From: an uncultured archaeon
GTDB taxonomy: Archaea > Thermoplasmatota > Penumbrarchaeia > JASLWR01
Direction of reading: 5' to 3'
Length of the DNA: 12,914 nucleotides
Assembly: GCA_964342815.1 (NCBI GenBank)
Contig: CAYFHS010000052.1
Span: forward strand, 1-12,914
Made by a program: the position numbers and the translations under genes. Positions 84 to 12,914 of this stretch are shown here, one piece after another (position 1 is the stretch's first letter; every line of letters starts with the position of its first letter). The notes under the pieces are model-generated. The model did no database searches. It had not been told where the DNA came from and saw nothing but the letters and a program-made list of their open reading frames with translations.

Positions 84-310
84 AGCCTGTAGGAAACCGT
101 AAGGTTTTCGAGGGCTCAGGTGTGACCGAAGGTTGCACCCGTAGGTACATTTACCGAGGGTGTAGCAACGCCTACTTGGTGTTGCGGAACGAAGTGGACA
201 CCGGAGTGAAGTGGGAGCCTGTAGGTTTCCAAAGGAAATCGAAGGCTAAGCAATGGCCGAAGGGTTGCGTAGTGAAGCGGTAGCCCGGAGGGATCGATTC
301 CGCTTCATCG
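19..310 (+). ncRNA. Candidate structured non-coding element (RNA or ssDNA), family not recognised
   Basis: Near-continuous stems on +: 26-62, 84-116, 119-139, 141-175, 176-204, 216-247, 250-268 and 272-308. G-U wobbles favour the + strand, and there are GUAA and GAA loops. No credible ORF. Transcription is not demonstrated. Confidence 0.6.
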
Positions 311-384: not shown

Positions 385-1794
385 TTACATTTCGAGTTCT
401 TCCAGAACCTTTTCCTTCGTTTTCTTCGCCGCCTCATTCTCCGGATTGATCTCCAAGACCTTTTCGATACAGGAAAGTTTCTCCTCCAGGTTTCCCAGCT
501 TACCAAGAGCGATCCCCTTGTTGAACCAGGCCTTTTCGTGAACAGGGTCTAGACCCAGGGCCTCGTCGTAGCACGCCACTGCTTCACGAAAATTCCCCAT
601 GTGGCGCCCGTACAGGTTCCCTTTCTGGAACCATATATCGGGATTTTCATCGAGGTCCAGAGCCTGATTGAAGAATTCTGTTGCCATATCGGGATCCTTA
701 AGATAGTTTGCGTGGATCTTACCAAGTTCAAGCAGTATCTTAGCGTTTTCCGGTTCGAGTTTCAGGGCATTGTTCAGGGATACCAGAGCCTCGTCGTAGT
801 CCTGGAATTCATTACTTAACAGTATGCCTTTTTCAAGCCATCCAATTGCCAAGTGGCGGTTGAGCTTCGTCAGCTCGTTGAAACAAGCCAGCGCCTCCTT
901 GTGCCTCTCGAAATGTTCGGACAGCATCATGGCCTTGTTGAACCAGGCTTCCTGATAATTTTCCTCGTTTTTAATGGCAAGGTCCCAGAATTCCAGGGCC
1001 TTTGGGTACTTTGATCGAGCATTGTAAATATTTCCCAGATAGAAATAGGATTGCGCAAGATCCTCCTGAAGTTCCACGGTCCTAAGAAAACATTCTTCCG
1101 CTTCGTGGAGAATATCTATATTGAAAAGGGCCACTCCCTTGTAGAACAGGGCATCGAGCAGATCTTCTTTCTGGTATAAGGCTGCATTGAAACACATGAT
1201 GGCTTCGTCATTCTGCTCCAGCTTGAAATAGGCAAGCCCCTTTCCCGAGAAAGCACGGTAGTTGTTCTCGTTTATCTTCAGTGCCTCGTCGTAGCATTGG
1301 ATGGCTTCTTCATACAGCTCAAGTTTCAGTAGGGCGTTGCCCTTGTTCACAAAAGCCTGTTCGAATTTCGGATGCAGCACCAGAGCCTGCTCGAAGTCCT
1401 CCAGAGCCTGCTCGAACTTTTCTTGAAAATAATAATTGCAGCCCCTGTTGTTGTAAGTGTTCTCATTGTTCGGATTTATCTCCATTGCCCGGTTATAACA
1501 TATGATGGAGTTATCATAATCTTCTAGAAGAGAGTGGATGTTTCCCTTGTTGTACCACGCATCTTCAATGTCATCGAAAAGAGCACAGGCGTCCTCAAGA
1601 CATTCCATGGCTTTGTCATAGTTACCGATCTCTTTCAGTACGGAGGCCTTTCTTGTATTGGCTATGTACAGCTCATTATCATTCGACTTGCCGCTCTGAA
1701 GAACTATGTTGTAGAAAGAAACTGCATCTCTGAATTCGTCTTTGCTCCAGGCCACATCACCTAGGTGAATCTGTTGATCAAGATCCTCTATCAC
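385..1794 (-). CDS. Tetratricopeptide-repeat protein (about 13 tandem TPRs, no catalytic domain seen)
   Basis: 469-aa ORF of 34-aa repeats such as AWYNKGNIHSLLEDYDNSIICYNRAMEINP and AFVNKGNALLKLELYEEAIQCYDEALKINE. GTG start with GGAGGA at 1801-1806 (minus strand). Confidence 0.93.
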   Translation of the reverse strand: MIEDLDQQIHLGDVAWSKDEFRDAVSFYNIVLQSGKSNDNELYIANTRKASVLKEIGNYDKAMECLEDACALFDDIEDAWYNKGNIHSLLEDYDNSIICYNRAMEINPNNENTYNNRGCNYYFQEKFEQALEDFEQALVLHPKFEQAFVNKGNALLKLELYEEAIQCYDEALKINENNYRAFSGKGLAYFKLEQNDEAIMCFNAALYQKEDLLDALFYKGVALFNIDILHEAEECFLRTVELQEDLAQSYFYLGNIYNARSKYPKALEFWDLAIKNEENYQEAWFNKAMMLSEHFERHKEALACFNELTKLNRHLAIGWLEKGILLSNEFQDYDEALVSLNNALKLEPENAKILLELGKIHANYLKDPDMATEFFNQALDLDENPDIWFQKGNLYGRHMGNFREAVACYDEALGLDPVHEKAWFNKGIALGKLGNLEEKLSCIEKVLEINPENEAAKKTKEKVLEELEM

Positions 1795-1817
1795 GAAAAA
1801 TCCTCCGTTATACCATC

Positions 1818-1832
1818 ATTAAAACCCTTTTG
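1818..1832 (-). promoter_or_regulatory. Possible BRE/TATA box for the TPR gene
   Basis: Minus strand reads CAAAAGGG-TTTTAAT about 25 nt upstream of the GTG, resembling an archaeal BRE+TATA. Motif match only. Confidence 0.35.
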
Positions 1833-1898
1833 AATATATTCTCTTTTCGGTAATTATCATTATATGCGTTTTTTTCGAAAATAAATCTCAACCGTACT

Positions 1899-2198
1899 TC
1901 AGCCCAGAAGTACTGTGGGAGCCCCTGCGACAACCACTCCTCCATGGGCGGTTGTGTCACCCATCCTTACCGCGGGTTTCCCTCCGATGAGAACCGATGT
2001 GGATCCTTTAACGAGGTTGTCGGGCGGACCCACGCAGGTGGCCAAATCACCCATCACCGCAGCCGGCAAGTTGGATATCAAGACCGTGGGAACCCCTGGG
2101 CCCGTGATGGGACCTCCAACGTGTGGTACGGGTGGGATCCCTGGTGTCACCATTGGGCAGGTGTGCATATCCCCCAGTCTGGCTGCCGGTTGTCCCAT
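1899..2198 (-). CDS. PAAR-domain spike-tip protein (stand-alone, no toxin extension)
   Basis: Three PAAR-type motifs (PAARLGD, PAAVMGD, PAVRMGD) with His/Cys residues (HTC, PHVGG, TCVG, TAHGG) suited to the tip metal site. The start is more likely ATG 2198 (MGQP) than 2204, because GGAG at 2207-2210 is then 8 nt away rather than 2. Confidence 0.93.
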   Translation of the reverse strand: MGQPAARLGDMHTCPMVTPGIPPVPHVGGPITGPGVPTVLISNLPAAVMGDLATCVGPPDNLVKGSTSVLIGGKPAVRMGDTTAHGGVVVAGAPTVLLG

Positions 2199-2216
2199 AT
2201 TCATTTCTCCGGAATA

Positions 2217-3437
2217 TTAATTTATTTTCACCAACGCTCCTTTCACTTCGAGAATGGCCGCGGCTTCCAGCTTACCAGTAGCCCCCGATTTCAATTCCAT
2301 GGGTGCTGCGGTTTCGAATTTTCCCATGGCACCAGCTTTCAGCTCGAGATTGGCTTTGCTCTCGCAAGCGAACCCCGCCCCGGCCTTTATACTTGTGTCC
2401 ATCTTTGATTCCATATCGAGTTTTTGCCCGCTTTTCATTTTGATATCTTTTTTTGCACTGATCTCCAGCTCATCTTCTGTGGCGATGGTCATTTTCTTAG
2501 CTGAAATTATGCTTATCTCCTGGGGGCTGTCAATCTCGATATTGCCATCCTGTTTAATTCTCACAACCGCCTTGCCCGATCTTACGGTGATGGTTGCCTT
2601 ATTTTTTCCAGATGGTTTTTCGGTATCGATCTCAATTGAGGATTCTCCCCTTTCAAGCAATATTGTGGACCGATCCTCGTCTTTTGTATGGATGGATATG
2701 CTTGCCATCTTGTCACTGGATCCCAGTACCATTTCGGATATCTTCGAAGCGGTCTTGCCCAGAAGAGACGATGGCTGCGAATCGGTCTTGCCCGTTTCCA
2801 GGACCAGCTCAGCCTCTTTTTCTCCTACCCCTCGGAGTCTCATGTGGGAGACAAAATCACTCGGTTCCGAGTCTTCACCCTCTTTAGGAAGGAAATTGGT
2901 TACAATGTCCACAATGCTCTCGTCATATCTCACCACGGTACCCGCGTTGAAACGGATCAGGTAATCATGCATGAACTCTCCTTTCTTGGGCATTCCCCTG
3001 AACTCGATGATCCGGCGGTCCAGTAAGGGCTCCCCGCGTGACGTATCTTTATCACCCTGGCGATATACGTTTGGATCGAATGTAATACGATGTTCACCGT
3101 CCCCATAAAGCGGGGTTCTTTTTTCCACTGAGTAAAGCCTTCCAATGATGACAGGCATCGAAAATATACCGTTAATGAAGGATATTAGGACGAGATCATT
3201 CACGTAAGGGATAATGACCGAACCGCTGTGGGCAGTGGCTATGGGAACGTTTTCCAATTTCAATGGTGTACCTTCCTTGGTGGTCCGCCCTTTTAAAAGC
3301 ACGGAACAATCATAGTTCACCACGTCGTCTTCAGTCTCGTGCAGGTTCACGGTCTCCACCACACCCAGCTCAAGGGTGTGCAGTTTTTCTATCTCGTTCC
3401 TGGCTATCTGCCGTATCATCTCTATGAGCGATGACAT
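2217..3437 (-). CDS. Phage baseplate assembly protein V / gp5-like (VgrG C-terminal half) spike protein
   Basis: N-terminal gp5 OB-fold signature (IPYVNDLVLISFINGIFSMPVIIGRLY). C-terminal approximately 8-residue beta-helix repeats (GNIEIDSPQEISIISAKKMTIATEDELEISAKKDIKMKSG...) ending KGALVKIN. Lies directly upstream of PAAR. No gp27-like hub domain. Confidence 0.85.
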   Translation of the reverse strand: MSSLIEMIRQIARNEIEKLHTLELGVVETVNLHETEDDVVNYDCSVLLKGRTTKEGTPLKLENVPIATAHSGSVIIPYVNDLVLISFINGIFSMPVIIGRLYSVEKRTPLYGDGEHRITFDPNVYRQGDKDTSRGEPLLDRRIIEFRGMPKKGEFMHDYLIRFNAGTVVRYDESIVDIVTNFLPKEGEDSEPSDFVSHMRLRGVGEKEAELVLETGKTDSQPSSLLGKTASKISEMVLGSSDKMASISIHTKDEDRSTILLERGESSIEIDTEKPSGKNKATITVRSGKAVVRIKQDGNIEIDSPQEISIISAKKMTIATEDELEISAKKDIKMKSGQKLDMESKMDTSIKAGAGFACESKANLELKAGAMGKFETAAPMELKSGATGKLEAAAILEVKGALVKIN

Positions 3438-3524
3438 TTTTTCCCCCGAGTTTCTTTATTTTTTCTATTAGATATTTTTGGGATGCTGTCTAGATTAAAG
3501 CTAGTAAAAGGTTCCGCCGGGACA

Positions 3525-3544
3525 TTTATATATATCTTTTCTTC
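3525..3544 (-). promoter_or_regulatory. Possible BRE/TATA box for the spike-PAAR unit
   Basis: Minus strand reads GAAGAAAAG-ATATATATAAA in the 134-bp gap, about 90 nt upstream of the spike ATG. Motif match only. Confidence 0.45.
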
Positions 3545-3571
3545 GCCGAATGGATTTTAATAACAGCCGGA

Positions 3572-6500
3572 TTAGCGTTTCCTGGCGATTTTTCTAACCT
3601 TTGTAACTTTCTTCAATGTTTTTCTTGTGTTAGGGATGGATAATGGTGGCAAAGCCAGTATTTCTTCAGCAGGTCTTCCGGCAGCAGGGAGGGAAAGTGA
3701 AGGGGTATCAATGGATAATGGAGGTAATGACGGGAGAGGTGCGGGATATGTCACAATAGGATTCTCCGTTTCCGGCGCGGAGCCAACCTTAATGGCAGTT
3801 GATTCCCCTTGACCATATGCAAACTGGATGTCGTTATTGGCAGACCTATTTTCTTCCCCCTTCATACCCTTTTTTATAATGACAAACAGGACGATCCCCA
3901 CTATGACAATTCCTATAAACACTACTGATATTATCCATACCCATCTTGTAGAACTCGATCCAATTGCCGGTTCCGCGGTATTCCTGCCCCCTTCCCCCTC
4001 TACAGTTAATTTCATTGTCGTTTCGGCCGATCCACCATCCTCATCGGTGACCGTGAGAGTGATCTTGTAATCGCCGGGAGAGCTAAAAATGTGCTGGATG
4101 ATCATCCCGGTCTTGGCGATACTTTCTATCTTCCAGCGGTATTCCAATCCCTCCATGTCTCCCGCCGTGTCGGTGGAGGAGCTTCCGTCCAGGGTTATTT
4201 TTTCACCCGTTTTTACCTTCAGGGAACTTATGTTTATGACAGCCTCCGGAAGAGTGTTTTCGATACGGAGTTTCTGGGTGATTGTCCCTGTAGCCCCGTC
4301 GTCATCTCTCACAGTGAGTTTTACCTCGTGCAGCCCCGAACCAAGGAAGACGTAACCAACCGTTTTTCCCCAGAGCGTCATCTCCCGACCTATCTTCCAG
4401 GTATAGTTCAGTCCGTTAATATCCGATTTGGTGTCCGAGGTTCCGGCTGCCGAGAAAACTATATTCGTCTCTTTATCCATGTCTCTCTTTGGTGAATATG
4501 AAAATCTCGCTTCGGGAGCTCTGTTGAGAATCGTGATGGACTTTGACATTTTGTAGGTTCCATTGCCGTTGTCTCTTATGAAGAGCATTACACTGTAAGT
4601 ACCGGAATAGTTGAACACATGGGTGAATTCGGTTTCATACTGCCATCCGCTAGTATTACCATCACCGAAATCCATGAGAAATTCTAGATCGTCCTCATCG
4701 GATTTTGTATCCTCTCCTTCGGCCGTGAATTTGATTTCGTCGTCTTCATATACCGTATCCAGGGAAATATCAAAGGTCCCATCCGGAATAGGATTTTCGA
4801 TGGTGACATTTGTAACACATGTCCCGATATCCATATCCCAATCCATCACGGATAATATGGCGGAATAGTTACCCGATTGACGATATGTATGTTCAATTTC
4901 CGGGTTCTGAATCCATTCAGACTGAATTCCGTCACCGAAATCCCATCTGAATTCCAACTCATCCGTATCATTTTCAGTATCCAACCCGCTCCCAGTGAAA
5001 AGCAAAGGATAGTCCTCCACTCCAATGAGGGTGGAAGGTGCGGATGCATTGGGCCGGACATTGTATACATTGACTGTCAGGGTGTCAGTGCTCTCTGCAT
5101 TATCATTATCCCTGACATCGAGGGTCACCAAGTAATTTCCCTTGACCGGGTAAGCATGAGCGGCGATGGGAGACCCGCTCCACTGTGAGGAACCACCGTC
5201 CCCGAAGGTCCAGCGGAATTCCAATCCGGCTGCGAGATCGGAAGCCGTGTCGAAACTTTCACTGCCGTTGAACACCACTATGGAATCCTCTGCCTCTACA
5301 CGATCCGGGCCGGCATCAGCTTCAGGGGGCAGGTTCGAAACCTTTATGGGCAGGGTCCGGCTGGTGCCCTGTTTCGATATGCTATCATAGAGCCTTGCGG
5401 AAATATTGTACTGTCCGGTTGCCCCGAATGAGAAGGTCGGGCTCTTTACCTGTCCATTCATAGCAGGTGTCTCCGTATGCTCATATACACCATCGTAGTC
5501 AAGATCCCACTGGACGACGTAATTGCCGGAATCGAGGGTAGCTGATGTTGTAAGAGATGCTGTTATTTTCTCGTCCTCATGGGGTTCGGAGGGGGTAATC
5601 GTCAGTGATTGAATCACCGGGGCATCCCCCTGTGTGATGGCCAATCTCTGATCTGCATCCACATTGAACAGCTCGGAACTGCTACGGTCCGGCCACCTTA
5701 TCTCTATCCGGTCGATGGTATCAGCGTCCCCGAGACCAAAATGTACAACGGGTGAGTTCTGAAAACCATGGCCTCCCGCATCCCCACCGATGATCCGGGA
5801 CATGTGAGTATCCCCCACGCTCAGTATCACCCTTGCACCAATAGCCCCTGAATTTGCCGTTGTACCTTTCAGCTTGAGCTCGAGCCAGTTATTCGAATTC
5901 CCTTCGTTTCTGAACAAGTGAAGCTCCCGAACACCCTTGAACGGGTAGGTTCCCTCTGTAATGAGATCGAGATCACCGTCGTTGTCATAATCGCCCCAGG
6001 CAGCCCCTGTATTGGACCATACGCGTATACCAAGTGTTTCCGCCTGGTCGGTGAACGTTCTGTCGCCGTTGTTCCTCCAAAGGTAACACCAATCCCAAAA
6101 GGAATAAGTCTTAACCTGGGGTATCCATATATCCAGGTCGCCGTCGTTGTCGTAATCACCCCACGTACATCCGAAATAGTCCTCGTCCTTCCAGTAACCG
6201 TTTCCTTCATTATCGTAGATCACCGTACCGGAGGGTGTAATGGGAATTCCCACCTCGGCCCTGATATCCTGAAAGTGATAGTCAGGATATCCGGAAGAAT
6301 CGAGAAGCTGGGCGTCATCACAGAATGCTCCCCTGTTCATTCCCGAACGCTCGTCGTCCTTGTGAGCGAGATTGCTAACCCATAGGTCCATGTCAAGGTC
6401 GTTGTCGAAATCCCCCCAGGCGCAGCCGGCACTGTGACCGTAATACGGGCCGGAGTTCTCGTAATAATCGGCGTCGCCGTCTACATCCGCCCTTGCGGGA

Positions 6501-7351
6501 CCCGCGGCATTTATAAAGGTCCCGTCCCCCTGGTTCTCCCATAGATAATTGGGACAGAGGTGATAATTTCCGACGTAGATGTCCTGCCAGCCGTCGTCAT
6601 TATAATCACAAACAGCTATGGACATCGCGGCATGGGCTGGATTGTTCCGATAAACCCCGGCTTCAGATGTTACGTCGGAAAAGGTCCCATCCCCGTTGTT
6701 GTGCCATAAACGGTCCACTCCACCCCAATTTGGCCAGTTATAATTTTGCCAATCCGGTTTCTGCCAAGCCGTGCAGAAAATGTCAAGAAAACCGTCATTG
6801 TCATAGTCCACCCATGCAGCCGCTTCCGAAGGGCAGTTGTCCTTGAAGTACATCTCGTTGCTTGTCACATTTATAAAATTGTAATCCGGAGCCCCCTCAT
6901 TGCGCCAGAGAGAATCACCCTTGGCGGCGCAGAAGAAATCGAGATTACCGTCATTGTCATAATCACCCCAGATACTGTATCCCCTGCAGTCGATACCCAC
7001 CTGGTCGGTGACCTCTAAAAAATTAAAGGATGGCGGTCCCTGATTCTCGAAAAGCATTGTACCACTGCTAGTGTTCCCTCTCACCAGAAGGTCGATGTAT
7101 CCGTCGTTATTGTAATCTCCCCAGGCTAAGTTGTCTCCCCGGATTCCCGAAAGACCGGCAGCAGGCGATGCGTTAATAAACATCACAGCTTCATCGGTTC
7201 GTCGTCGCGACGCAGTTGAAATGAAGCCCATATCTTTTTCTGTTTCATCCGAAGTTCCTCTATCGGTTGATGAAGTCGGATTCCACCCGGAGAATGATTG
7301 CATAAGAAACATTGCTACGAACAATCCGATAATTATATGCTTGGTTCCCAT
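3572..7351 (-). CDS. Secreted, C-terminally anchored FG-GAP beta-propeller + ASPIC/UnbV (CRTAC1-like) + six PKD-like domain surface protein
   Basis: N-terminal signal-like hydrophobic stretch. Seven WxDYDNDGxxD-type FG-GAP motifs. ASPIC/UnbV segment (NNWLELKLKG...AIGARV...VVHFGLGDADTIDRIEIRWPD). Six Ig/PKD repeats (e.g. FRWTFGDG...HAYPVKGNYLVTLDVRD). TM helix WVWIISVVFIGIVIVGIVLFVII followed by a Pro-rich, basic tail. AGGTGG RBS upstream. Confidence 0.92.
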   Translation of the reverse strand: MGTKHIIIGLFVAMFLMQSFSGWNPTSSTDRGTSDETEKDMGFISTASRRRTDEAVMFINASPAAGLSGIRGDNLAWGDYNNDGYIDLLVRGNTSSGTMLFENQGPPSFNFLEVTDQVGIDCRGYSIWGDYDNDGNLDFFCAAKGDSLWRNEGAPDYNFINVTSNEMYFKDNCPSEAAAWVDYDNDGFLDIFCTAWQKPDWQNYNWPNWGGVDRLWHNNGDGTFSDVTSEAGVYRNNPAHAAMSIAVCDYNDDGWQDIYVGNYHLCPNYLWENQGDGTFINAAGPARADVDGDADYYENSGPYYGHSAGCAWGDFDNDLDMDLWVSNLAHKDDERSGMNRGAFCDDAQLLDSSGYPDYHFQDIRAEVGIPITPSGTVIYDNEGNGYWKDEDYFGCTWGDYDNDGDLDIWIPQVKTYSFWDWCYLWRNNGDRTFTDQAETLGIRVWSNTGAAWGDYDNDGDLDLITEGTYPFKGVRELHLFRNEGNSNNWLELKLKGTTANSGAIGARVILSVGDTHMSRIIGGDAGGHGFQNSPVVHFGLGDADTIDRIEIRWPDRSSSELFNVDADQRLAITQGDAPVIQSLTITPSEPHEDEKITASLTTSATLDSGNYVVQWDLDYDGVYEHTETPAMNGQVKSPTFSFGATGQYNISARLYDSISKQGTSRTLPIKVSNLPPEADAGPDRVEAEDSIVVFNGSESFDTASDLAAGLEFRWTFGDGGSSQWSGSPIAAHAYPVKGNYLVTLDVRDNDNAESTDTLTVNVYNVRPNASAPSTLIGVEDYPLLFTGSGLDTENDTDELEFRWDFGDGIQSEWIQNPEIEHTYRQSGNYSAILSVMDWDMDIGTCVTNVTIENPIPDGTFDISLDTVYEDDEIKFTAEGEDTKSDEDDLEFLMDFGDGNTSGWQYETEFTHVFNYSGTYSVMLFIRDNGNGTYKMSKSITILNRAPEARFSYSPKRDMDKETNIVFSAAGTSDTKSDINGLNYTWKIGREMTLWGKTVGYVFLGSGLHEVKLTVRDDDGATGTITQKLRIENTLPEAVINISSLKVKTGEKITLDGSSSTDTAGDMEGLEYRWKIESIAKTGMIIQHIFSSPGDYKITLTVTDEDGGSAETTMKLTVEGEGGRNTAEPAIGSSSTRWVWIISVVFIGIVIVGIVLFVIIKKGMKGEENRSANNDIQFAYGQGESTAIKVGSAPETENPIVTYPAPLPSLPPLSIDTPSLSLPAAGRPAEEILALPPLSIPNTRKTLKKVTKVRKIARKR

Positions 7352-7439
7352 GAATTACGCCACCTGAACTTATTGGGGAAGATAGTGGAAAAAGTTTACA
7401 GGAGGAATAAGCATAGCTGCGTATTAATAAAATTAGTGT

Positions 7440-7479
7440 AAAAAAAATAAAAAAAAAAAGAAAAAATAAAAAAAAATAA
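7440..7479 (-). terminator. Long oligo-U tract, putative archaeal terminator of the pilin gene
   Basis: 36 of 40 bases are A on + (T on -), starting 16 nt after the pilin stop codon. Archaeal termination at U-tracts is established. Confidence 0.7.
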
Positions 7480-7495
7480 TTTTACATGCGGGTAT

Positions 7496-8074
7496 TTAGG
7501 TTGTCAACTGTTGCTGGTATACAAAGGTATCCGTGAAAACGATTTCCTGGTTCGGGTCCTTTATCATGACTTCGTAGACGGCGCCTTTCTCTATGTTAAT
7601 ACCCATGCTGGCCATGGGCATATCGAAGCCGATATACTCGCCGTCGCTCCATGAGGAACCGGTAGCCTCAACGTTCTTATCCTCGATCTTCCAGTTCTTG
7701 TCGTCGTACCTATAAGACTTGTTTCTGTCGCCGCCCACAGGTGAAAGATCGTCCTCGCCCTGGTCTTCGTAGTCCCTGAAGGCGAAATCAAGTTTCTTAG
7801 GGGAGCGTCCCGTCTCGGTCACATAGAAGGAATATTTCGAGGGGTCGATGTCCACCGCTTTTACGGCGCGGATGGTGAAGAAGCATCCGTGCACCTCGTC
7901 CTTGTTCACTCCATCACTTGCCTCGAAGGCCATGATGGATACGTCACCTCCAGTGTCGGCCATGGATATGACCCACATGTACAACACACCGGCCAGAACC
8001 ACCGTTATTGCCACCATGAGGATGATAGCGATAACAGGCGAAACGGCCTCGTCGTTCTTTTTCATTCTTTTCAT
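7496..8074 (-). CDS. Archaeal type IV pilin-like protein (class III signal peptide)
   Basis: MKRMKKNDEA|VSPVIAIILMVAITVVLAGVLYMWV is the archaeal pilin/archaellin N-terminal motif cleaved by PibD/FlaK-type peptidases. GGAGGA RBS at 8082-8087 (minus strand). Confidence 0.92.
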   Translation of the reverse strand: MKRMKKNDEAVSPVIAIILMVAITVVLAGVLYMWVISMADTGGDVSIMAFEASDGVNKDEVHGCFFTIRAVKAVDIDPSKYSFYVTETGRSPKKLDFAFRDYEDQGEDDLSPVGGDRNKSYRYDDKNWKIEDKNVEATGSSWSDGEYIGFDMPMASMGINIEKGAVYEVMIKDPNQEIVFTDTFVYQQQLTT

Positions 8075-8249
8075 ATTTTTGTCCTCCTGTACGCAAACGC
8101 GTACAATTTTCTTATATGAATGCCGAGCTATATATAGTTTATTACGAGGTTCGTCACTAGGGCAACAAGAGCTGAAGTCGATTATAAAAGCCCACTAAGC
8201 TCATCTCTATTTTTGAGGCCAAAATATTTATTATCCCATTCCAACATTA
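8075..8249. promoter_or_regulatory. Divergent promoter region (pilin on -, peptidase operon on +)
   Basis: Head-to-head genes. TATA-like elements AATAAA-CTATATATA (minus strand, about 8128-8143) and AAAATATTTATTAT (plus strand, 8221-8234). Confidence 0.5.
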
Positions 8250-10136
8250 GTGCGGGTCGATATGAGTCGAAAGATACCGATTCTCCTAATGGCGATGCTG
8301 CTCTCCTTGAACGTTCTACCGGTCTTTGGCCTTGCTGTTTCCCCGGAAGAACCCACATCCGCTATTAACGAGCCGGGGGCTTCCTTGTTGGATATCGATA
8401 GTTTTTTCAGCGAGTATCATACCTACGAGACCATGGTTATGCACCTCGAAATGTTGGAGGGAAAGTTTCCAGATATCATCCGACTTTACGACCTTACCAA
8501 GAACACCGCTCTTGGACGAACCTACCAGGGACGTTCCGTTTGGGCCGTGAAAATAAGCAGTGGCGTTGGCGAAGAGGCTGATTACTACGACGATCCCGCG
8601 AAGCCGAACGTGTTGATATTCGGGGCCCATCATGGGAGAGAATGGATGAGCTATGAAGTATGTATCTATACTGTGTTCTATCTAGCATATAATTACGGTA
8701 GGAAAAACGTGGATGATGACGGTGATTCTTTAGTGAATGAGGACCTCTTTGACGGCCTGGATAACGATAATGATGGTGAGATTGACGAGGACCCTTCTCA
8801 GGGTAGAGTGAACTATCTGGTTGAGAACAGGGAGATATGGGTAATTCCCATGTTAAATCCCGATGGGGTCGCATACGACCACACGATTTCTAGGGCAGGG
8901 TCCGGCGGCGGTTGGCGGAAAAACCTGCGTAACAACATTCCCCCGCTCACAGATGAGTTCGATCCCGATAATGACGGTGTGGACCTTAACAGGAACTATC
9001 CCTATATGTGGTGGGCTAACCGAAAGGGAAGCGTTATCAATCCCGATGGAGTGGTAATGGCTGTGGATTCGGCAAATCCCTCTTCAGATGTTTATAGAGG
9101 ACCCCCTGACGGTGAGAACCAGGATGGTGATTCTGGTAACATGGGATTGATCCCCCGGGTCGATGAGGATCCGGTGGATGGTGTTGATAACGACGGTGAT
9201 GGAAAGTTGGATGAGGACCGGGACGGGGGTTTTTCCGAACCAGAAACCCAGGCTATAGGAGCTCTAGTAAAGACCTTCGATGACCAGCCCGATACAGGGA
9301 ATATACCTTTTGTCACATCGATCTCATATCACAGTGTTGCCGGCCTCGTTTTATGGCCGTGGGGTTTTTCTAGAAGGACGACTCCACACGATTCTCTTTT
9401 CAAGGATATCGGAAACCGATTGGCAGTAGCTACCGGGTACCGCGGCATGCAGGCCACTGGCCTATATCCCGCCTCGGGAGACAGTGAGGATTGGCTGTAC
9501 GGGTCGGGGAACGTTCTTGCATTTACCATCGAATTGGACGGGCCCGACGGGGGCTTTCATCCCGCCACGGAGCACATAGTTCCTATCTGCCGTAAATCTC
9601 TTGCCGCCGATCTCGGTCTCTTTGACCTTTCCGACAAGATCGAAGTGGCAAAACAGTATCATCTTACTGTGGAGCAGTCCGTTGTGGGCATCGATGTGGC
9701 AAATATGCAGACGGTTGTAAAATCGAATGAAGATATTGTTATTCAGGCGGATATACTTAATGAGGACAAGATGGTACCTGATTCACTGATACTCCATTAC
9801 AGCGAGAACGGGAATCAATACCTGGAATCTACAATGGTTTTCGACACGTCATCAGGATATTACAGTACAACCATTAGGGACATACCTCCCGGGACGACCC
9901 TGAGATATTATATCGCCGTTCGCGATGTTAGCGGGATAACTGTGTATGCACCGGATTACGGATCTTATGATCCATTAAGCCTGGACATAAGCACCGAATC
10001 AGGCCTTTCCACTTTGGAAAATATTATAATGGTCATAATGATGTTCGTTATATTACTGGTGGTTTGGGGTGGATTCGCGGGTCTAATTTTAATGGCGTTC
10101 AAGGCGGAAAAGAGGAAAAACAAGATTGCTACCTGA
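8250..10136 (+). CDS. Membrane-anchored M14 zinc carboxypeptidase (carboxypeptidase T-like) with Ca-binding-type inserts, Ig-like domain and C-terminal TM
   Basis: Motifs GAHHGREW (HxxE), NPDG, WRKN, GVDLNRNY, FSEPETQA, SYHS, YPASGDSEDW and FTIEL. Signal peptide at the N-terminus and hydrophobic helix plus basic tail at the C-terminus. The start may be ATG 8262. Confidence 0.93.
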   Translation: MRVDMSRKIPILLMAMLLSLNVLPVFGLAVSPEEPTSAINEPGASLLDIDSFFSEYHTYETMVMHLEMLEGKFPDIIRLYDLTKNTALGRTYQGRSVWAVKISSGVGEEADYYDDPAKPNVLIFGAHHGREWMSYEVCIYTVFYLAYNYGRKNVDDDGDSLVNEDLFDGLDNDNDGEIDEDPSQGRVNYLVENREIWVIPMLNPDGVAYDHTISRAGSGGGWRKNLRNNIPPLTDEFDPDNDGVDLNRNYPYMWWANRKGSVINPDGVVMAVDSANPSSDVYRGPPDGENQDGDSGNMGLIPRVDEDPVDGVDNDGDGKLDEDRDGGFSEPETQAIGALVKTFDDQPDTGNIPFVTSISYHSVAGLVLWPWGFSRRTTPHDSLFKDIGNRLAVATGYRGMQATGLYPASGDSEDWLYGSGNVLAFTIELDGPDGGFHPATEHIVPICRKSLAADLGLFDLSDKIEVAKQYHLTVEQSVVGIDVANMQTVVKSNEDIVIQADILNEDKMVPDSLILHYSENGNQYLESTMVFDTSSGYYSTTIRDIPPGTTLRYYIAVRDVSGITVYAPDYGSYDPLSLDISTESGLSTLENIIMVIMMFVILLVVWGGFAGLILMAFKAEKRKNKIAT

Positions 10137-10173
10137 AGGTACAGGGACTTTCTGAAGAAAGGAGAAATCGGTC

Positions 10174-11757
10174 ATGGAAAAAAAGGGCGGGAAAGAACAG
10201 TTCACATCACGTTGGGGACTGGTCCTGGCCGCATTGGGTGCGGCGGTGGGAACAGGTAATATTTGGCGTTTTCCAAAAGAGGTGGCATCAAATGGCGGTT
10301 CGGCATTCATCCTGATATACATACTGTTCCTCTTCTCCTGGTCCATTCCATTGTTGATCGCCGAGTTTGCCATAGGTAAGAAGACCCGTATGGGCACCAT
10401 CGGCGCGTTCAAGAAGATCCTCGGCAAGAAATACCTGTGGATGGGCGTATGGATGATGCTTGTCTCAGCAGCCATCAATTTCTATTATGCCGTGGTCATG
10501 GGTTGGACCGTGAGATATTTCTGGGTGGCACTTTCGGGGGGTATCACAAGCAAGGTTGATACGTTCCAATTGTGGGATTCCTTCATTTCCTCGTGGCATC
10601 TGGTCATATTCTTCCAAGTTATATCGCTGGCGGCCGGTCTGATAATCGTGTATTACGGCGTGGCCAAGGGTATCGAGAAAGCCACAAAGTTCATGATCCC
10701 GGCACTTTTCCTGCTCTTGGTGGGAGCCATGTTGTGGTCTCTAACTCTACCTCGTGCATATCAGGGGCTTCGCTTCATGTTCTGGGCGGACTGGAGCGCA
10801 CTTGGCAGCGGGGAAACGTGGATCCGCGCCCTTGCCCAGAGCGCATGGTCATGTTCGGCAGGGATGGGGATGGGCATCACTTATGCGGTCTACATGTCAA
10901 AAAAAGAGGATATTGCATTGAATAGTTTTTTGACAGGATTCGGGGACAGTGCCATTGCCCTGGTGGCAGGAATTGCAGTCATATGTACTGTATTCGCCTC
11001 TGCGAACAGCTATGAAGCTGCTGAGGGGTATCTAGCCGAGGGTGGTACCGCATTAACTTTCATTTACCTTACCAACCTCTTTGCGAAGATGCCTCTGGGC
11101 TGGCTCATTGCCCCTATGTTCTTTCTGGCAATGGCCTTTGCAGCTCTCACCTCGTTGATCTCCGGGATGGAAATTTCAGCGAGAAATCTCATAGATTTCG
11201 GTTGGACCAGGAAAAAGTCCGTGATAGTTGTAACCGTGGTTACCTTTTTACTGGGTATTCCCTCTGCTGCAATCGTGCTTCACCTAAATGGCGCCCCGGT
11301 CACAGCATTCCTTGATAATCAGGACCTTGTGTGGGGAACCGGGCTCATCGTGAGCGGCTTCTTCGTGGCGTTCTCGATATGGAAATACGGAACATCCCGG
11401 TTCAGAAGGGAGTTCATCAATACCAAATGGAACGACCTCAGGATCGGTAAGTGGTGGGATTATATCATCAAATACCTTTTTCCCATTCAATTCATCGCAC
11501 TTTTTATATGGGCTTTCTATGATATATGGACTGAAAATAACCCAGAGTGGTGGCATGAGGGACATTGGGGGGTTATCATACTATTGGTCGAATGGGCCGT
11601 GGTCATGGTGATAGCAATACTTCTCAACACGAAACTGGGTAAAAAGTTCGACGAAGTGGAAGCCGGGAGGAAGAAGGGCAACGACGCCGAAGCTGGGTTG
11701 GATGGGCTTGTAGTGGAACCCATACCCACTTACGAGATCATCGATTTCGGTGAATAG
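10174..11757 (+). CDS. Sodium-dependent transporter, neurotransmitter:sodium symporter (NSS/SNF; LeuT/MhsT-like) family, probably amino-acid uptake
   Basis: TM1 signature FTSRWGLVLAALGAAVGTGNIWRFP, PLLIAEFAIGK, NFYYAVVMGW and multiple TM helices. AGGAG RBS upstream. Confidence 0.95.
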   Translation: MEKKGGKEQFTSRWGLVLAALGAAVGTGNIWRFPKEVASNGGSAFILIYILFLFSWSIPLLIAEFAIGKKTRMGTIGAFKKILGKKYLWMGVWMMLVSAAINFYYAVVMGWTVRYFWVALSGGITSKVDTFQLWDSFISSWHLVIFFQVISLAAGLIIVYYGVAKGIEKATKFMIPALFLLLVGAMLWSLTLPRAYQGLRFMFWADWSALGSGETWIRALAQSAWSCSAGMGMGITYAVYMSKKEDIALNSFLTGFGDSAIALVAGIAVICTVFASANSYEAAEGYLAEGGTALTFIYLTNLFAKMPLGWLIAPMFFLAMAFAALTSLISGMEISARNLIDFGWTRKKSVIVVTVVTFLLGIPSAAIVLHLNGAPVTAFLDNQDLVWGTGLIVSGFFVAFSIWKYGTSRFRREFINTKWNDLRIGKWWDYIIKYLFPIQFIALFIWAFYDIWTENNPEWWHEGHWGVIILLVEWAVVMVIAILLNTKLGKKFDEVEAGRKKGNDAEAGLDGLVVEPIPTYEIIDFGE

Positions 11758-11773
11758 GGGTTGGGTGATGTAA

Positions 11774-12553
11774 ATGGATGACGGATTATCAGCATGTACC
11801 TGCGTTGATGAAAATGAAGTGGTGGTGCTAAGCTCACAAAAGAACTGCCACCTCATACGCGCGGGGGATGGTAGAAAAAGGATATCTAAAATTGGTGTTT
11901 TCAATACTTCGTCGCTGGTGGGGAGAGAATACGGTGATAAGTTAAAGGTCGGACCCCATAACTTCACCATATTGAGACCAACCCTGCCCCTTCTTCACAA
12001 AGCGTTTCGCAGAAAGGCTCAGGTTATAATGCTTAAGGATGCTATGACTATCGTTGGCGAACTTGGTATAAGAAGCGGGAGCAGGGTATTGGAAGTAGGT
12101 GTGGGCTCCGGTTTCATGTCTGCGGTATTATTGTGGTTCACAGGCCCCTCGGGCGAGCTGGTTTCCTACGAGAAGAGAAGGGATTTTGCTGAAATTGCAG
12201 AAGAGAACATCAGATCGGCTGGTCTTTACCGTAACTGGAAATTGAGGGTGTGTGCCGGTGAGGATATGGATGAAAATATAAAATTCGATTGTGCGGTGGT
12301 GGATGTACCCGAGCCGTGGAATCTGATGGAGAAAGTGGGTAAGGCGTTGGTGAGGGGTGGGAAAGCCGCTTTCTACGTACCTACCTACAATCAGTTCGAG
12401 ACCTGTCTCGCTGCGTTTGTGGAGTCCGGATTATCAAGTATGGGTGCTAGAGAGGTACTTGTCCGTGACATGACCACCACCCAAGGTAGTATCAGACCCT
12501 GCTTCGACATGCTGGGTCATACGGGTTTCATACTGTTTGCAGGAAAGCGCTGA
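11774..12553 (+). CDS. trmI: tRNA (adenine-N1)-methyltransferase TrmI (GCD14 family)
   Basis: RKAQVIMLKD, SAM motif VLEVGVGSG, SYEKRRDFAEIAEEN, DVPEPW, YVPTYNQ and IRP...GHTGF. GGTGA RBS at about 11766-11770. Confidence 0.93.
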   Translation: MDDGLSACTCVDENEVVVLSSQKNCHLIRAGDGRKRISKIGVFNTSSLVGREYGDKLKVGPHNFTILRPTLPLLHKAFRRKAQVIMLKDAMTIVGELGIRSGSRVLEVGVGSGFMSAVLLWFTGPSGELVSYEKRRDFAEIAEENIRSAGLYRNWKLRVCAGEDMDENIKFDCAVVDVPEPWNLMEKVGKALVRGGKAAFYVPTYNQFETCLAAFVESGLSSMGAREVLVRDMTTTQGSIRPCFDMLGHTGFILFAGKR

Positions 12554-12597
12554 AAAATGAATCGATTTATAAATTTCCAGCTTTCGGTATACAATAC

Positions 12598-12914
12598 GGC
12601 GTTGGGATTTTGCGAAGATGCATGAATCGGAATCTGCCCTTTATAGGCGCCAGTATCTCTCCGATGCCCGCTACGCTCCAGTGCATCGCTGATGCAATTG
12701 CATCCTCGGCCAACTTTCGCGTTGGCCGGACCTGTAAGAACCGAGAGGTTCTGAAGGTTCAGTTGCATGATAATGCAACGGAGTGCCAACGGGAACAGGA
12801 ACGTTCACATAGGGAATGTTCCGAGTATCGGGGATGTTCCCCCCTACGGGCGATACCGTGAACTATGACAGGTAACGGCTTGCCAAGTTACGGTTTGACA
12901 GGTTACCACCTGGC
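12598..12914 (+). ncRNA. Candidate structured non-coding element related to the left-end element
   Basis: Dense stems: palindrome 12691-12704, hairpins 12707-12728, 12729-12759 (GAGA loop), 12762-12779 and 12798-12822, and a three-way junction at 12825-12856. Carries the same module as 84-144 and 216-272. Truncated by the window edge. Confidence 0.55.
12850..12914 (-). repeat. Right copy of the 65-bp inverted repeat (partner 19-83)
   Basis: Reverse complement reads GCCAGGTGGTAACCTGTCAAACCGTAACTTGGCAAGCCGTTACCTGTCATAGTTCACGGTATCGC, matching 19-83 at 61/65. It runs to the last base of the window. Confidence 0.97.

Follow-up and report, generated by a model that had tools for sequence, protein, structure and literature searches.

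A lineage-restricted family of structured repeats with GUA/GA two-hairpin units in marine Thermoplasmatota

Small structured repeats of the REP, BOX, and ERIC type are well known in bacteria and, to our knowledge, have hardly been described in archaea. The BOX repeats of Streptococcus pneumoniae and the ERIC (IRU) repeats of enterobacteria are modular (A-Bn-C), vary in how many internal units they contain, and are predicted to fold stably; they have fixed internal insertion sites, ∼100 copies, and no known transposase. The bacterial GTAG REPs combine a GTAG with a palindrome; they are intergenic, occur in many copies, form clusters of both orientations, and lie within other palindromes (PMC3733652). 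In these repeats GTAG is an unpaired terminal tag whose position before a hairpin is the hallmark of a REP, and reports of GTAG-tagged repeats come from bacteria only (PMC3733652).

The archaeal element analyzed here shares the listed build features of the BOX and ERIC repeats; it differs from them in having no sequence relation to either, in ends that each close a hairpin of their own instead of pairing together, and in an internal unit that carries GUA/GA. Like GTAG REPs, BIME mosaics, and REPIN doublets, which are thought to move as single-stranded DNA, it contains short GTAG-preceded hairpins that are intergenic, present in high copy number, arranged in mosaic clusters of both orientations, nested in palindromes, and variable in number between relatives (PMC3733652, PMC3116915). 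Unlike in GTAG REPs, the GTA of the archaeal unit faces a conserved GA across a closed lower stem to form a 3x2 loop, a second hairpin and a purine-rich linker are coupled to the first hairpin, and the units lie in an archaeal host, with no RAYT, inside a larger element with fixed, unlike ends.

A third comparison is with IS200/IS605 elements and their miniature derivatives (PATEs), with which the element shares the absence of terminal inverted repeats and of target duplication, a fixed short flank (AT here), hairpins at both ends, and a strand-specific structure. Unlike in IS200/IS605, the two end hairpins are dissimilar to each other and to the IS200 ends of two related genomes (G001, a congener, and G003, from a second genus), Y1 genes do not co-occur with the element, and its interior is far more elaborate. 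By analogy, the element would work most like REP/BIME, BOX/ERIC, and IS200-derived miniature elements, and it is a member of none of these kinds, as its GTAG is paired and it has no RAYT, no matching insertion sequence, and no inverted repeats.

Repeat units at the ends of contig C52

The window, meaning the whole stretch of 12,914 nucleotides that was analyzed, is the entire contig C52 of the genome G000, a 4.35-Mb assembly of an uncultured archaeon in 116 contigs that is 89% complete. Genes occupy positions 385-12553, and the non-coding ends are 1-384 and 12554-12914. The sequence of both ends recurs on many other G000 contigs, and positions 19-83 are an inverted copy of 12850-12914 (65 nt, 94% complementary), so the contig most likely ends where the assembly broke at a repeat. 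Both non-coding ends are parts of a dispersed repeat family, with the following features.

1-69, + strand: module A, an interior segment of the repeat element, 91-94% identical to its counterpart in complete elements on contigs C1, C7, and C13
19-83, no strand assigned: left arm of the 65-nt inverted repeat with 12850-12914, one module in opposite orientations at the two contig ends; further copies on C1, C7, C13, C17, and C49
70-82, + strand: 5' strand (GTTC-GCGGAATCG) of the P1 closing hairpin, with its partner at 295-303; helix 3 of the consensus fold
84-131, + strand: GUA/GA unit 1 (previously copy 1) with an atypical second half; R2 28.5 bits, model positions 1-56 only; GUA/GA hairpin at 84-116
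132-206, + strand: GUA/GA unit 2, absent from the earlier note and found by a structural scan; R2 63.3 bits at 136-206
216-289, + strand: GUA/GA unit 3 (previously copy 2) and its purine-rich linker; R2 60.9 bits
295-308, + strand: 3' strand of P1 (CGATTCCGC) and the terminal TTCAT, the 3' end of the left element; complete copies end at the equivalent position
12659-12731, - strand: degenerate unit, head to head with the unit at 12729-12801; R2 39.1 bits
12698-12762, no strand assigned: 65-nt segment made of two head-to-head first hairpins, with a TTGCAT direct repeat at its borders; absent from the paralogue C36:17975-18106
12729-12801, + strand: GUA/GA unit (previously copy 3); R2 67.2 bits, E 9e-19
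12821-12914, - strand: element fragment, consisting of module A and then a P1-like hairpin (CGGTATCG...CGATAC) around a GTAG hairpin

An earlier note on this DNA had described three two-hairpin segments at 84-144, 216-272, and 12729-12783, and all three are present exactly as quoted there. The covariance model R2 (described below) gives five units in the window, at 84-131 (partial), 136-206, 216-289, 12729-12801, and, on the minus strand, 12659-12731 (E-values of 1e-17 to 1e-19 for the window copies), so that three copies was an undercount by the units at 132-206 and 12659-12731. The second hairpin that had been assigned to copy 1 also needs revision, as its 3' arm (132-139) doubles as the lower stem of the unit at 132-206.

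The left element lacks its 5' end because the contig start falls inside it, and its units are framed by GCGGAATC (74-81) and GATTCCGC (296-303). Unit 2 has a paralogue that is 89% identical (C2:63868-63975), and the variant P1 (GCGGTATC/GATACCGC) of the fragment at 12821-12914 recurs on contigs C9, C16, and C42. At the right end of C52, where units lie on both strands, positions 12640-12843 are 95-99% identical to the paralogue on C36 apart from the 65 nt that the C36 copy does not contain, and the joined form without these 65 nt is also present in an independent DNA run. The C36 paralogue lacks just the two head-to-head first hairpins, indicating that units are gained or lost separately from their second hairpins.

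Among the genes of C52, the region 1899-3437 (minus strand) encodes a 406-aa protein that weakly matches DUF2345 and the gp5/VgrG spike OB fold and, immediately downstream of it, a 101-aa PAAR-motif protein (PF05488, 91 bits). This PAAR and spike-like pair is adjoined by a 1,259-aa FG-GAP/PKD surface protein (3572-7351). Spike-tip parts of contractile injection systems are unusual for an archaeon.

Structure of the unit and of the complete element

When G000 was scanned for the pattern stem-GTA-hairpin-GA-stem, ∼63 family-like instances were obtained, and in nearly all of them (C)AG comes next, then another hairpin and a linker rich in purines (GGARNNNARYGGG). We also counted loop cores in hairpins with a 3x2 internal loop, using Watson-Crick pairs only, with four pairs above the loop and three below. 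In this count GTA/GA ranks first of the 1,024 possible 3x2 cores in G000 (79 occurrences against a mean of 17.6, sd 9), although base composition favors AT-rich cores; in a looser count with G-U pairs allowed, chance matches dominate. The recurrence of the GUA/GA module is far beyond chance.

A set of 23 units from G000 was aligned with MAFFT, with no use of structure in the fitting, and R2 was built from this alignment. RNAalifold recovered from it the two-hairpin architecture that the earlier note had drawn, with 15 of the 17 pairs kept through changes on both sides. Both GUA and GA are invariant in all 23 units, as claimed for the internal loop; what had been overlooked is that the pyrimidine before GUA pairs with the purine after GA (C-G in 13 units, U-A in 7, and U-G in 3), which makes the internal loop a 3x2 loop. 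The final G of GTAG is paired with C in 18 of the 23 units and replaced by an A-U pair in 4, and a lower stem of 5 bp, which covaries, closes around the motif. In the second hairpin, which played no part in the selection of the units, there are 11 G-U and no A-C pairs. The proposal that it is the fold that selection preserves, and not the sequence, is therefore borne out by the 15 covarying pairs, with the addition that the G-U excess limits this selection to one strand.

The bulged-G (sarcin-ricin/loop E, S-turn) RNA motif has as its core signature a GUA that faces a GA between closing Watson-Crick pairs. The units contain this GUA/GA core flanked by helices, and as in the bulged-G motif the hairpin side is closed by G-C (or A-U). 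In contrast to the classical motif, with its A-A or A-C pair, the units have a covarying Watson-Crick pair on the far side, and the likeness is known here from DNA sequence. We rejected a reading of GUA/GA as a K-turn, which needs a 3-nt bulge followed by tandem G-A pairs, an arrangement that the 3x2 loop does not provide.

By following the copies outward in G000, we found that both ends are fixed, the 5' end as ATATTGTCAATGGTG and the 3' end as GATTCYGCTGAAT. A complete copy begins with ATTGTCAATGG directly after a host AT, complete copies form a size series of 74-452 nt with constant ends, and in 32 copies conservation ceases sharply outside ATATTG...GAAT. There are no terminal inverted repeats, since the 5' end ATTGTCAATGG is unlike TCAGCGGAATCG, the reverse complement of the 3' end.

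In 16 mini copies, the element has a two-domain fold made of a 5' hairpin, P0, and a long 3' hairpin, P1. The P0 stem has 7 bp and opens at the first base of the element, right after the leading AT; P1 (GTTC-GCGGAATCG...CGATTCCGC-TGAAT) closes at the last base of the element, its last pairs using the terminal GAAT. At its tip, P1 has one to three GUA/GA two-hairpin units or, in their place, a tiny conserved hairpin, and the P1 closing stem bounds 31 stretches in G000 that range from a 31-nt hairpin with the tiny conserved tip up to 279 nt with three units. Further modules can occupy or follow the 5' domain, which adds to the variation in size.

A second covariance model, R1, was built from the mini copies. 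An alignment of 46 copies from two families of the class, which was fitted to R1 and is hence biased toward the structure, has 95.6% of its cells paired and 21 of 27 pairs changed on both sides (10 of 13 in the P1 helix). Its covariation score is 0.340, compared with 0.146 for shuffled alignments (0 of 500 reach the observed score) and 0.05-0.08 for slid partners. The compensations are visible in the alignment rows, where GTTC/GAAT alternates with GCTC/GAGT and GCGGAATC with GCAACATC or GAGGAATC, each with a matching partner. The excess of G-U over A-C in this scaffold (45 versus 16), together with that in the second hairpin of the units (11 to 0), shows that the fold is selected on one strand.

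Short perfect hairpins of the form NNNGAATC-N2-4-GATTCNNN are numerous in G000, alone or within larger elements (for example C7:90681-90699, C5:73601-73619, and C22:21165-21183). Their outer three pairs covary, their GAATC/GATTC core is common to P1, and both halves are GANTC sites.

Distribution, insertion sites, and candidate enzymes

The covariance-model search proposed in the earlier note, run with R2, found hundreds of homologues: at least 118 units in G000 and at least 133 and 127 in two relatives, numbers that are lower bounds as nearly every candidate scored was a match, and 0-2 units per genome in the other 33 genomes searched in the class. With R1, at least 55 copies were found in G000, at least 88 in G001, and at least 103 in G003, with none in G002, which represents a third genus of the family. 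Counts of the end motifs are 107/127 and 72/55 in G001/G003, compared with 0-6 for reversed controls. Diverged full-length R1 copies are present in 5 of 17 genomes of a second family in the same class, and there are none in ∼120 other genomes of the phylum.

One or two lone unit-like sequences also occur in genomes without the scaffold, with GGA or GCA in the place of GUA, as at L153:1500-1575 (G002:C34) and L152 (G030:C624:21309-21379); these may be relics or independent copies. An origin from a host RNA gene was considered and rejected, as the lone unit-like matches in G002, G017, and G030 lie outside any RNA recognized by Rfam.

A 15-mer scan of genome and viral collections gave chance matches and a sole true copy, on one Thermoplasmatota MAG contig, and a 21-mer of the element core was absent from viral contigs. 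Copies are also present on metagenome contigs of other samples, and the same DNA occurs in runs from several studies. With Rfam 15, the whole window had no matches at the gathering threshold, and both window ends and a complete element gave only chance-level matches at E<=10, in agreement with the earlier statement that the units fit no named family; we found no description of the element in the literature searched. From these results, we conclude that the element is a real, undescribed, lineage-restricted repeat family in a few related marine Thermoplasmatota.

Orthologous sites with and without the element were compared between G000 and G001. The 452-nt copy on contig C15 of G000 lies between two co-directional genes, and the orthologous spacer in G001 is empty and 21 nt long (flanks 77% identical); conversely, three mini copies of G001 have empty orthologous sites in G000. 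In four of the five filled/empty comparisons, the filled site reads AT-element-AT and the empty one keeps a single AT; the fifth empty site has a three-base difference. An orthologous site on C33 is filled in both G000 and G001 with different interior modules, and at C2:73297 the element is conserved between orthologues. Copies of the second family mostly end in GT and still have AT on their left, and the bases at the 3' terminus covary with the 5' arm of P1, from which it follows that the right-hand dinucleotide is part of the element and that no target duplication occurs. Whether the single AT should be assigned to target or element is ambiguous from the site comparisons, the target being the best reading of the left AT.

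Relative to neighboring genes, 10 copies are co-oriented and 9 opposed, and this lack of bias is expected of selfish DNA. A terminator or 3'-UTR role was rejected on the same lack of bias and because convergent gene pairs flank few copies. As for a replication-strand bias, 9 of 30 cases have a local excess of G on the strand of the element, too slight a signal to interpret. The element has neither the terminal inverted repeats nor the true target-site duplication of a classical MITE, as flanking dinucleotides differ in second-family copies; its subterminal hairpins, fixed short flank, and lack of inverted terminal repeats and target duplication are those of IS200/IS605-derived miniature elements. 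The element has sharp ends, a high copy number, and a strand-specific conserved fold, and it is gained and lost at orthologous sites. The "modular large ncRNA" proposed in the earlier note is not supported: what carries the modules is a dispersed, sharply bounded element, which has more than 50 copies and is polymorphic for presence or absence when congeneric genomes are compared. The alternative offered there, a protein-binding RNA/ssDNA element, may hold.

No Y1 transposase (PF01797) was found in G000, at its 89% completeness, or in any of 24 second-family genomes, and Y1 genes occur in genomes that do not contain the element. The Y1 proteins of G001 and G003 are of the IS200 type (NF033573, 115 bits; 26 bits with the RAYT model versus its cut-off of 80), and the resident IS200 copies of these two genomes have end hairpins unrelated to the element and are not flanked by GUA/GA hairpins. 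No protein scoring as a RAYT was found. Among other candidates, a TnpB guide RNA was dismissed as there is no TnpB in four genomes, and an IS110 bridge RNA as the single IS110 gene lies on contig C110 of G000, which has no similarity to the element; C110 (1,579 nt, 63% GC versus 45% for the genome) is probably bin contamination. A serine recombinase was discarded as each of the four genomes, the element-free one among them, has one orthologue of it, and an IS91-type Y2 gene as it occurs only in G001, is interrupted by a stop, and lies 3 kb and several genes from the nearest element. In a search for a gene-bearing master copy, no pair of end motifs more than ∼450 nt apart was found in G000, among the G001/G003 matches listed, or in 16 metagenome contigs.

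At L026:1380-1430 (G001:C65), an IS200-type tnpA has its stop codon within a GTAG, after which come a bulged hairpin and GAA, and the loop of this hairpin contains GCGAAGTG, similar to the unit linker. This locus could be a distant link of IS200 ends to the repeat units, or a coincidence.

A proposed mobile repeat and its alternatives

The reading that we favor, with a probability of roughly 0.6, is that the modules are amplifiable internal units of a lineage-specific, non-autonomous mobile repeat that moves as a folded single strand. This strand would most likely be DNA, as in IS200/IS605 and REPs, and a candidate enzyme would read the hairpins and their irregularities, the GUA/GA loop included. 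In the predicted fold, the first base of the element pairs with the base preceding GTTC and its last base with the G of GTTC, so that the two ends abut on an internal splint (...TGACAAT-GTTC...), which may keep them side by side. Units probably multiply within elements through duplication or exchange between copies. Against a mobile repeat stand the lack of a candidate enzyme that tracks the element and of a longer, gene-carrying copy between the end motifs among the copies and matches listed. In addition, conserved scaffolds with expansion at hairpin tips are more typically seen among functional RNAs than among the remnants of transposons, and sequence alone does not separate single-stranded DNA from RNA.

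These last points bear on a possible but rather unlikely alternative, a functional structured RNA family whose copies are transcribed and whose bulged-G modules serve as protein-binding or tertiary-contact units (e.g. as a scaffold or decoy) or which spreads through an RNA copy. The plus strand folds better than its complement (-134.9 versus -108.1 kcal/mol; z -4.3 versus -2.9), covariation is strong with G-U pairs on one strand only, GUA/GA is the bulged-G/S-turn core signature, and the scaffold is conserved while growing at its loop tips. However, G-T wobbles are tolerated in single-stranded DNA as well, so the strand asymmetry is no proof of RNA. There is also no promoter-like conserved block at or upstream of the 5' end, orientation is random with respect to host genes, units lie on both strands inside one cluster, and copies are gained, lost, and remodeled among close relatives. 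A comparison of loop types expected of DNA and RNA (C-GNA-G versus GNRA/UNCG) gave no signal genome-wide. Among the contigs of three metatranscriptome runs, the archaeal type IV pilin-like gene of the organism (7496-8074, PF07790; region 7487-8106) was the sole part of C52 strongly represented (contig depth 35-200) and no contig lay over the window ends, a result that is neutral on an RNA role.

We consider it quite improbable that the GTAG-tagged hairpins are REPs of a true REP/REPIN-RAYT system, mobilized by a RAYT that is unassembled or recently lost. The units do combine GTAG with a palindrome, are highly repeated and intergenic, form clusters of both orientations nested in other palindromes, and include, at the right end of C52, two head-to-head first hairpins that were gained or lost jointly in the manner of a REP doublet. 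Nevertheless, no protein scores as a RAYT, the only Y1 proteins in the family are of the IS200 type, neither G000 nor the 24 second-family genomes have a Y1 gene, the G of GTAG is paired here with the motif inside a lower stem, and GTAG REPs are reported from bacteria only (PMC3733652). The chance of a fortuitous resemblance or a contig-end assembly artifact, which the position of both copy-bearing regions at contig ends that are mutually inverted copies might suggest, is close to nil. It is refuted by hundreds of internal R1 and R2 copies in three independent assemblies and on metagenome contigs of other samples, by the same DNA in runs from several studies, and by E-values down to 1e-19.

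A bolder version of the mobile-repeat reading, which we regard as doubtful, is that the element represents a new, Y1/HUH-independent class of archaeal mobile element, in which a single strand (RNA or DNA) would splint its own ends on an internal guide and the bulged-G modules would recruit a host or element-encoded protein. If true, transposition would here follow a new mechanism, and the family would in addition supply structured RNAs.

The repeat family accounts for many contig breaks and for many calls of "novel structured RNA" in these MAGs, which therefore need not be chased singly. With its exact ends, two covariance models, covariation-backed fold, and pairs of filled and empty sites, it offers a tractable case for movement without a RAYT.
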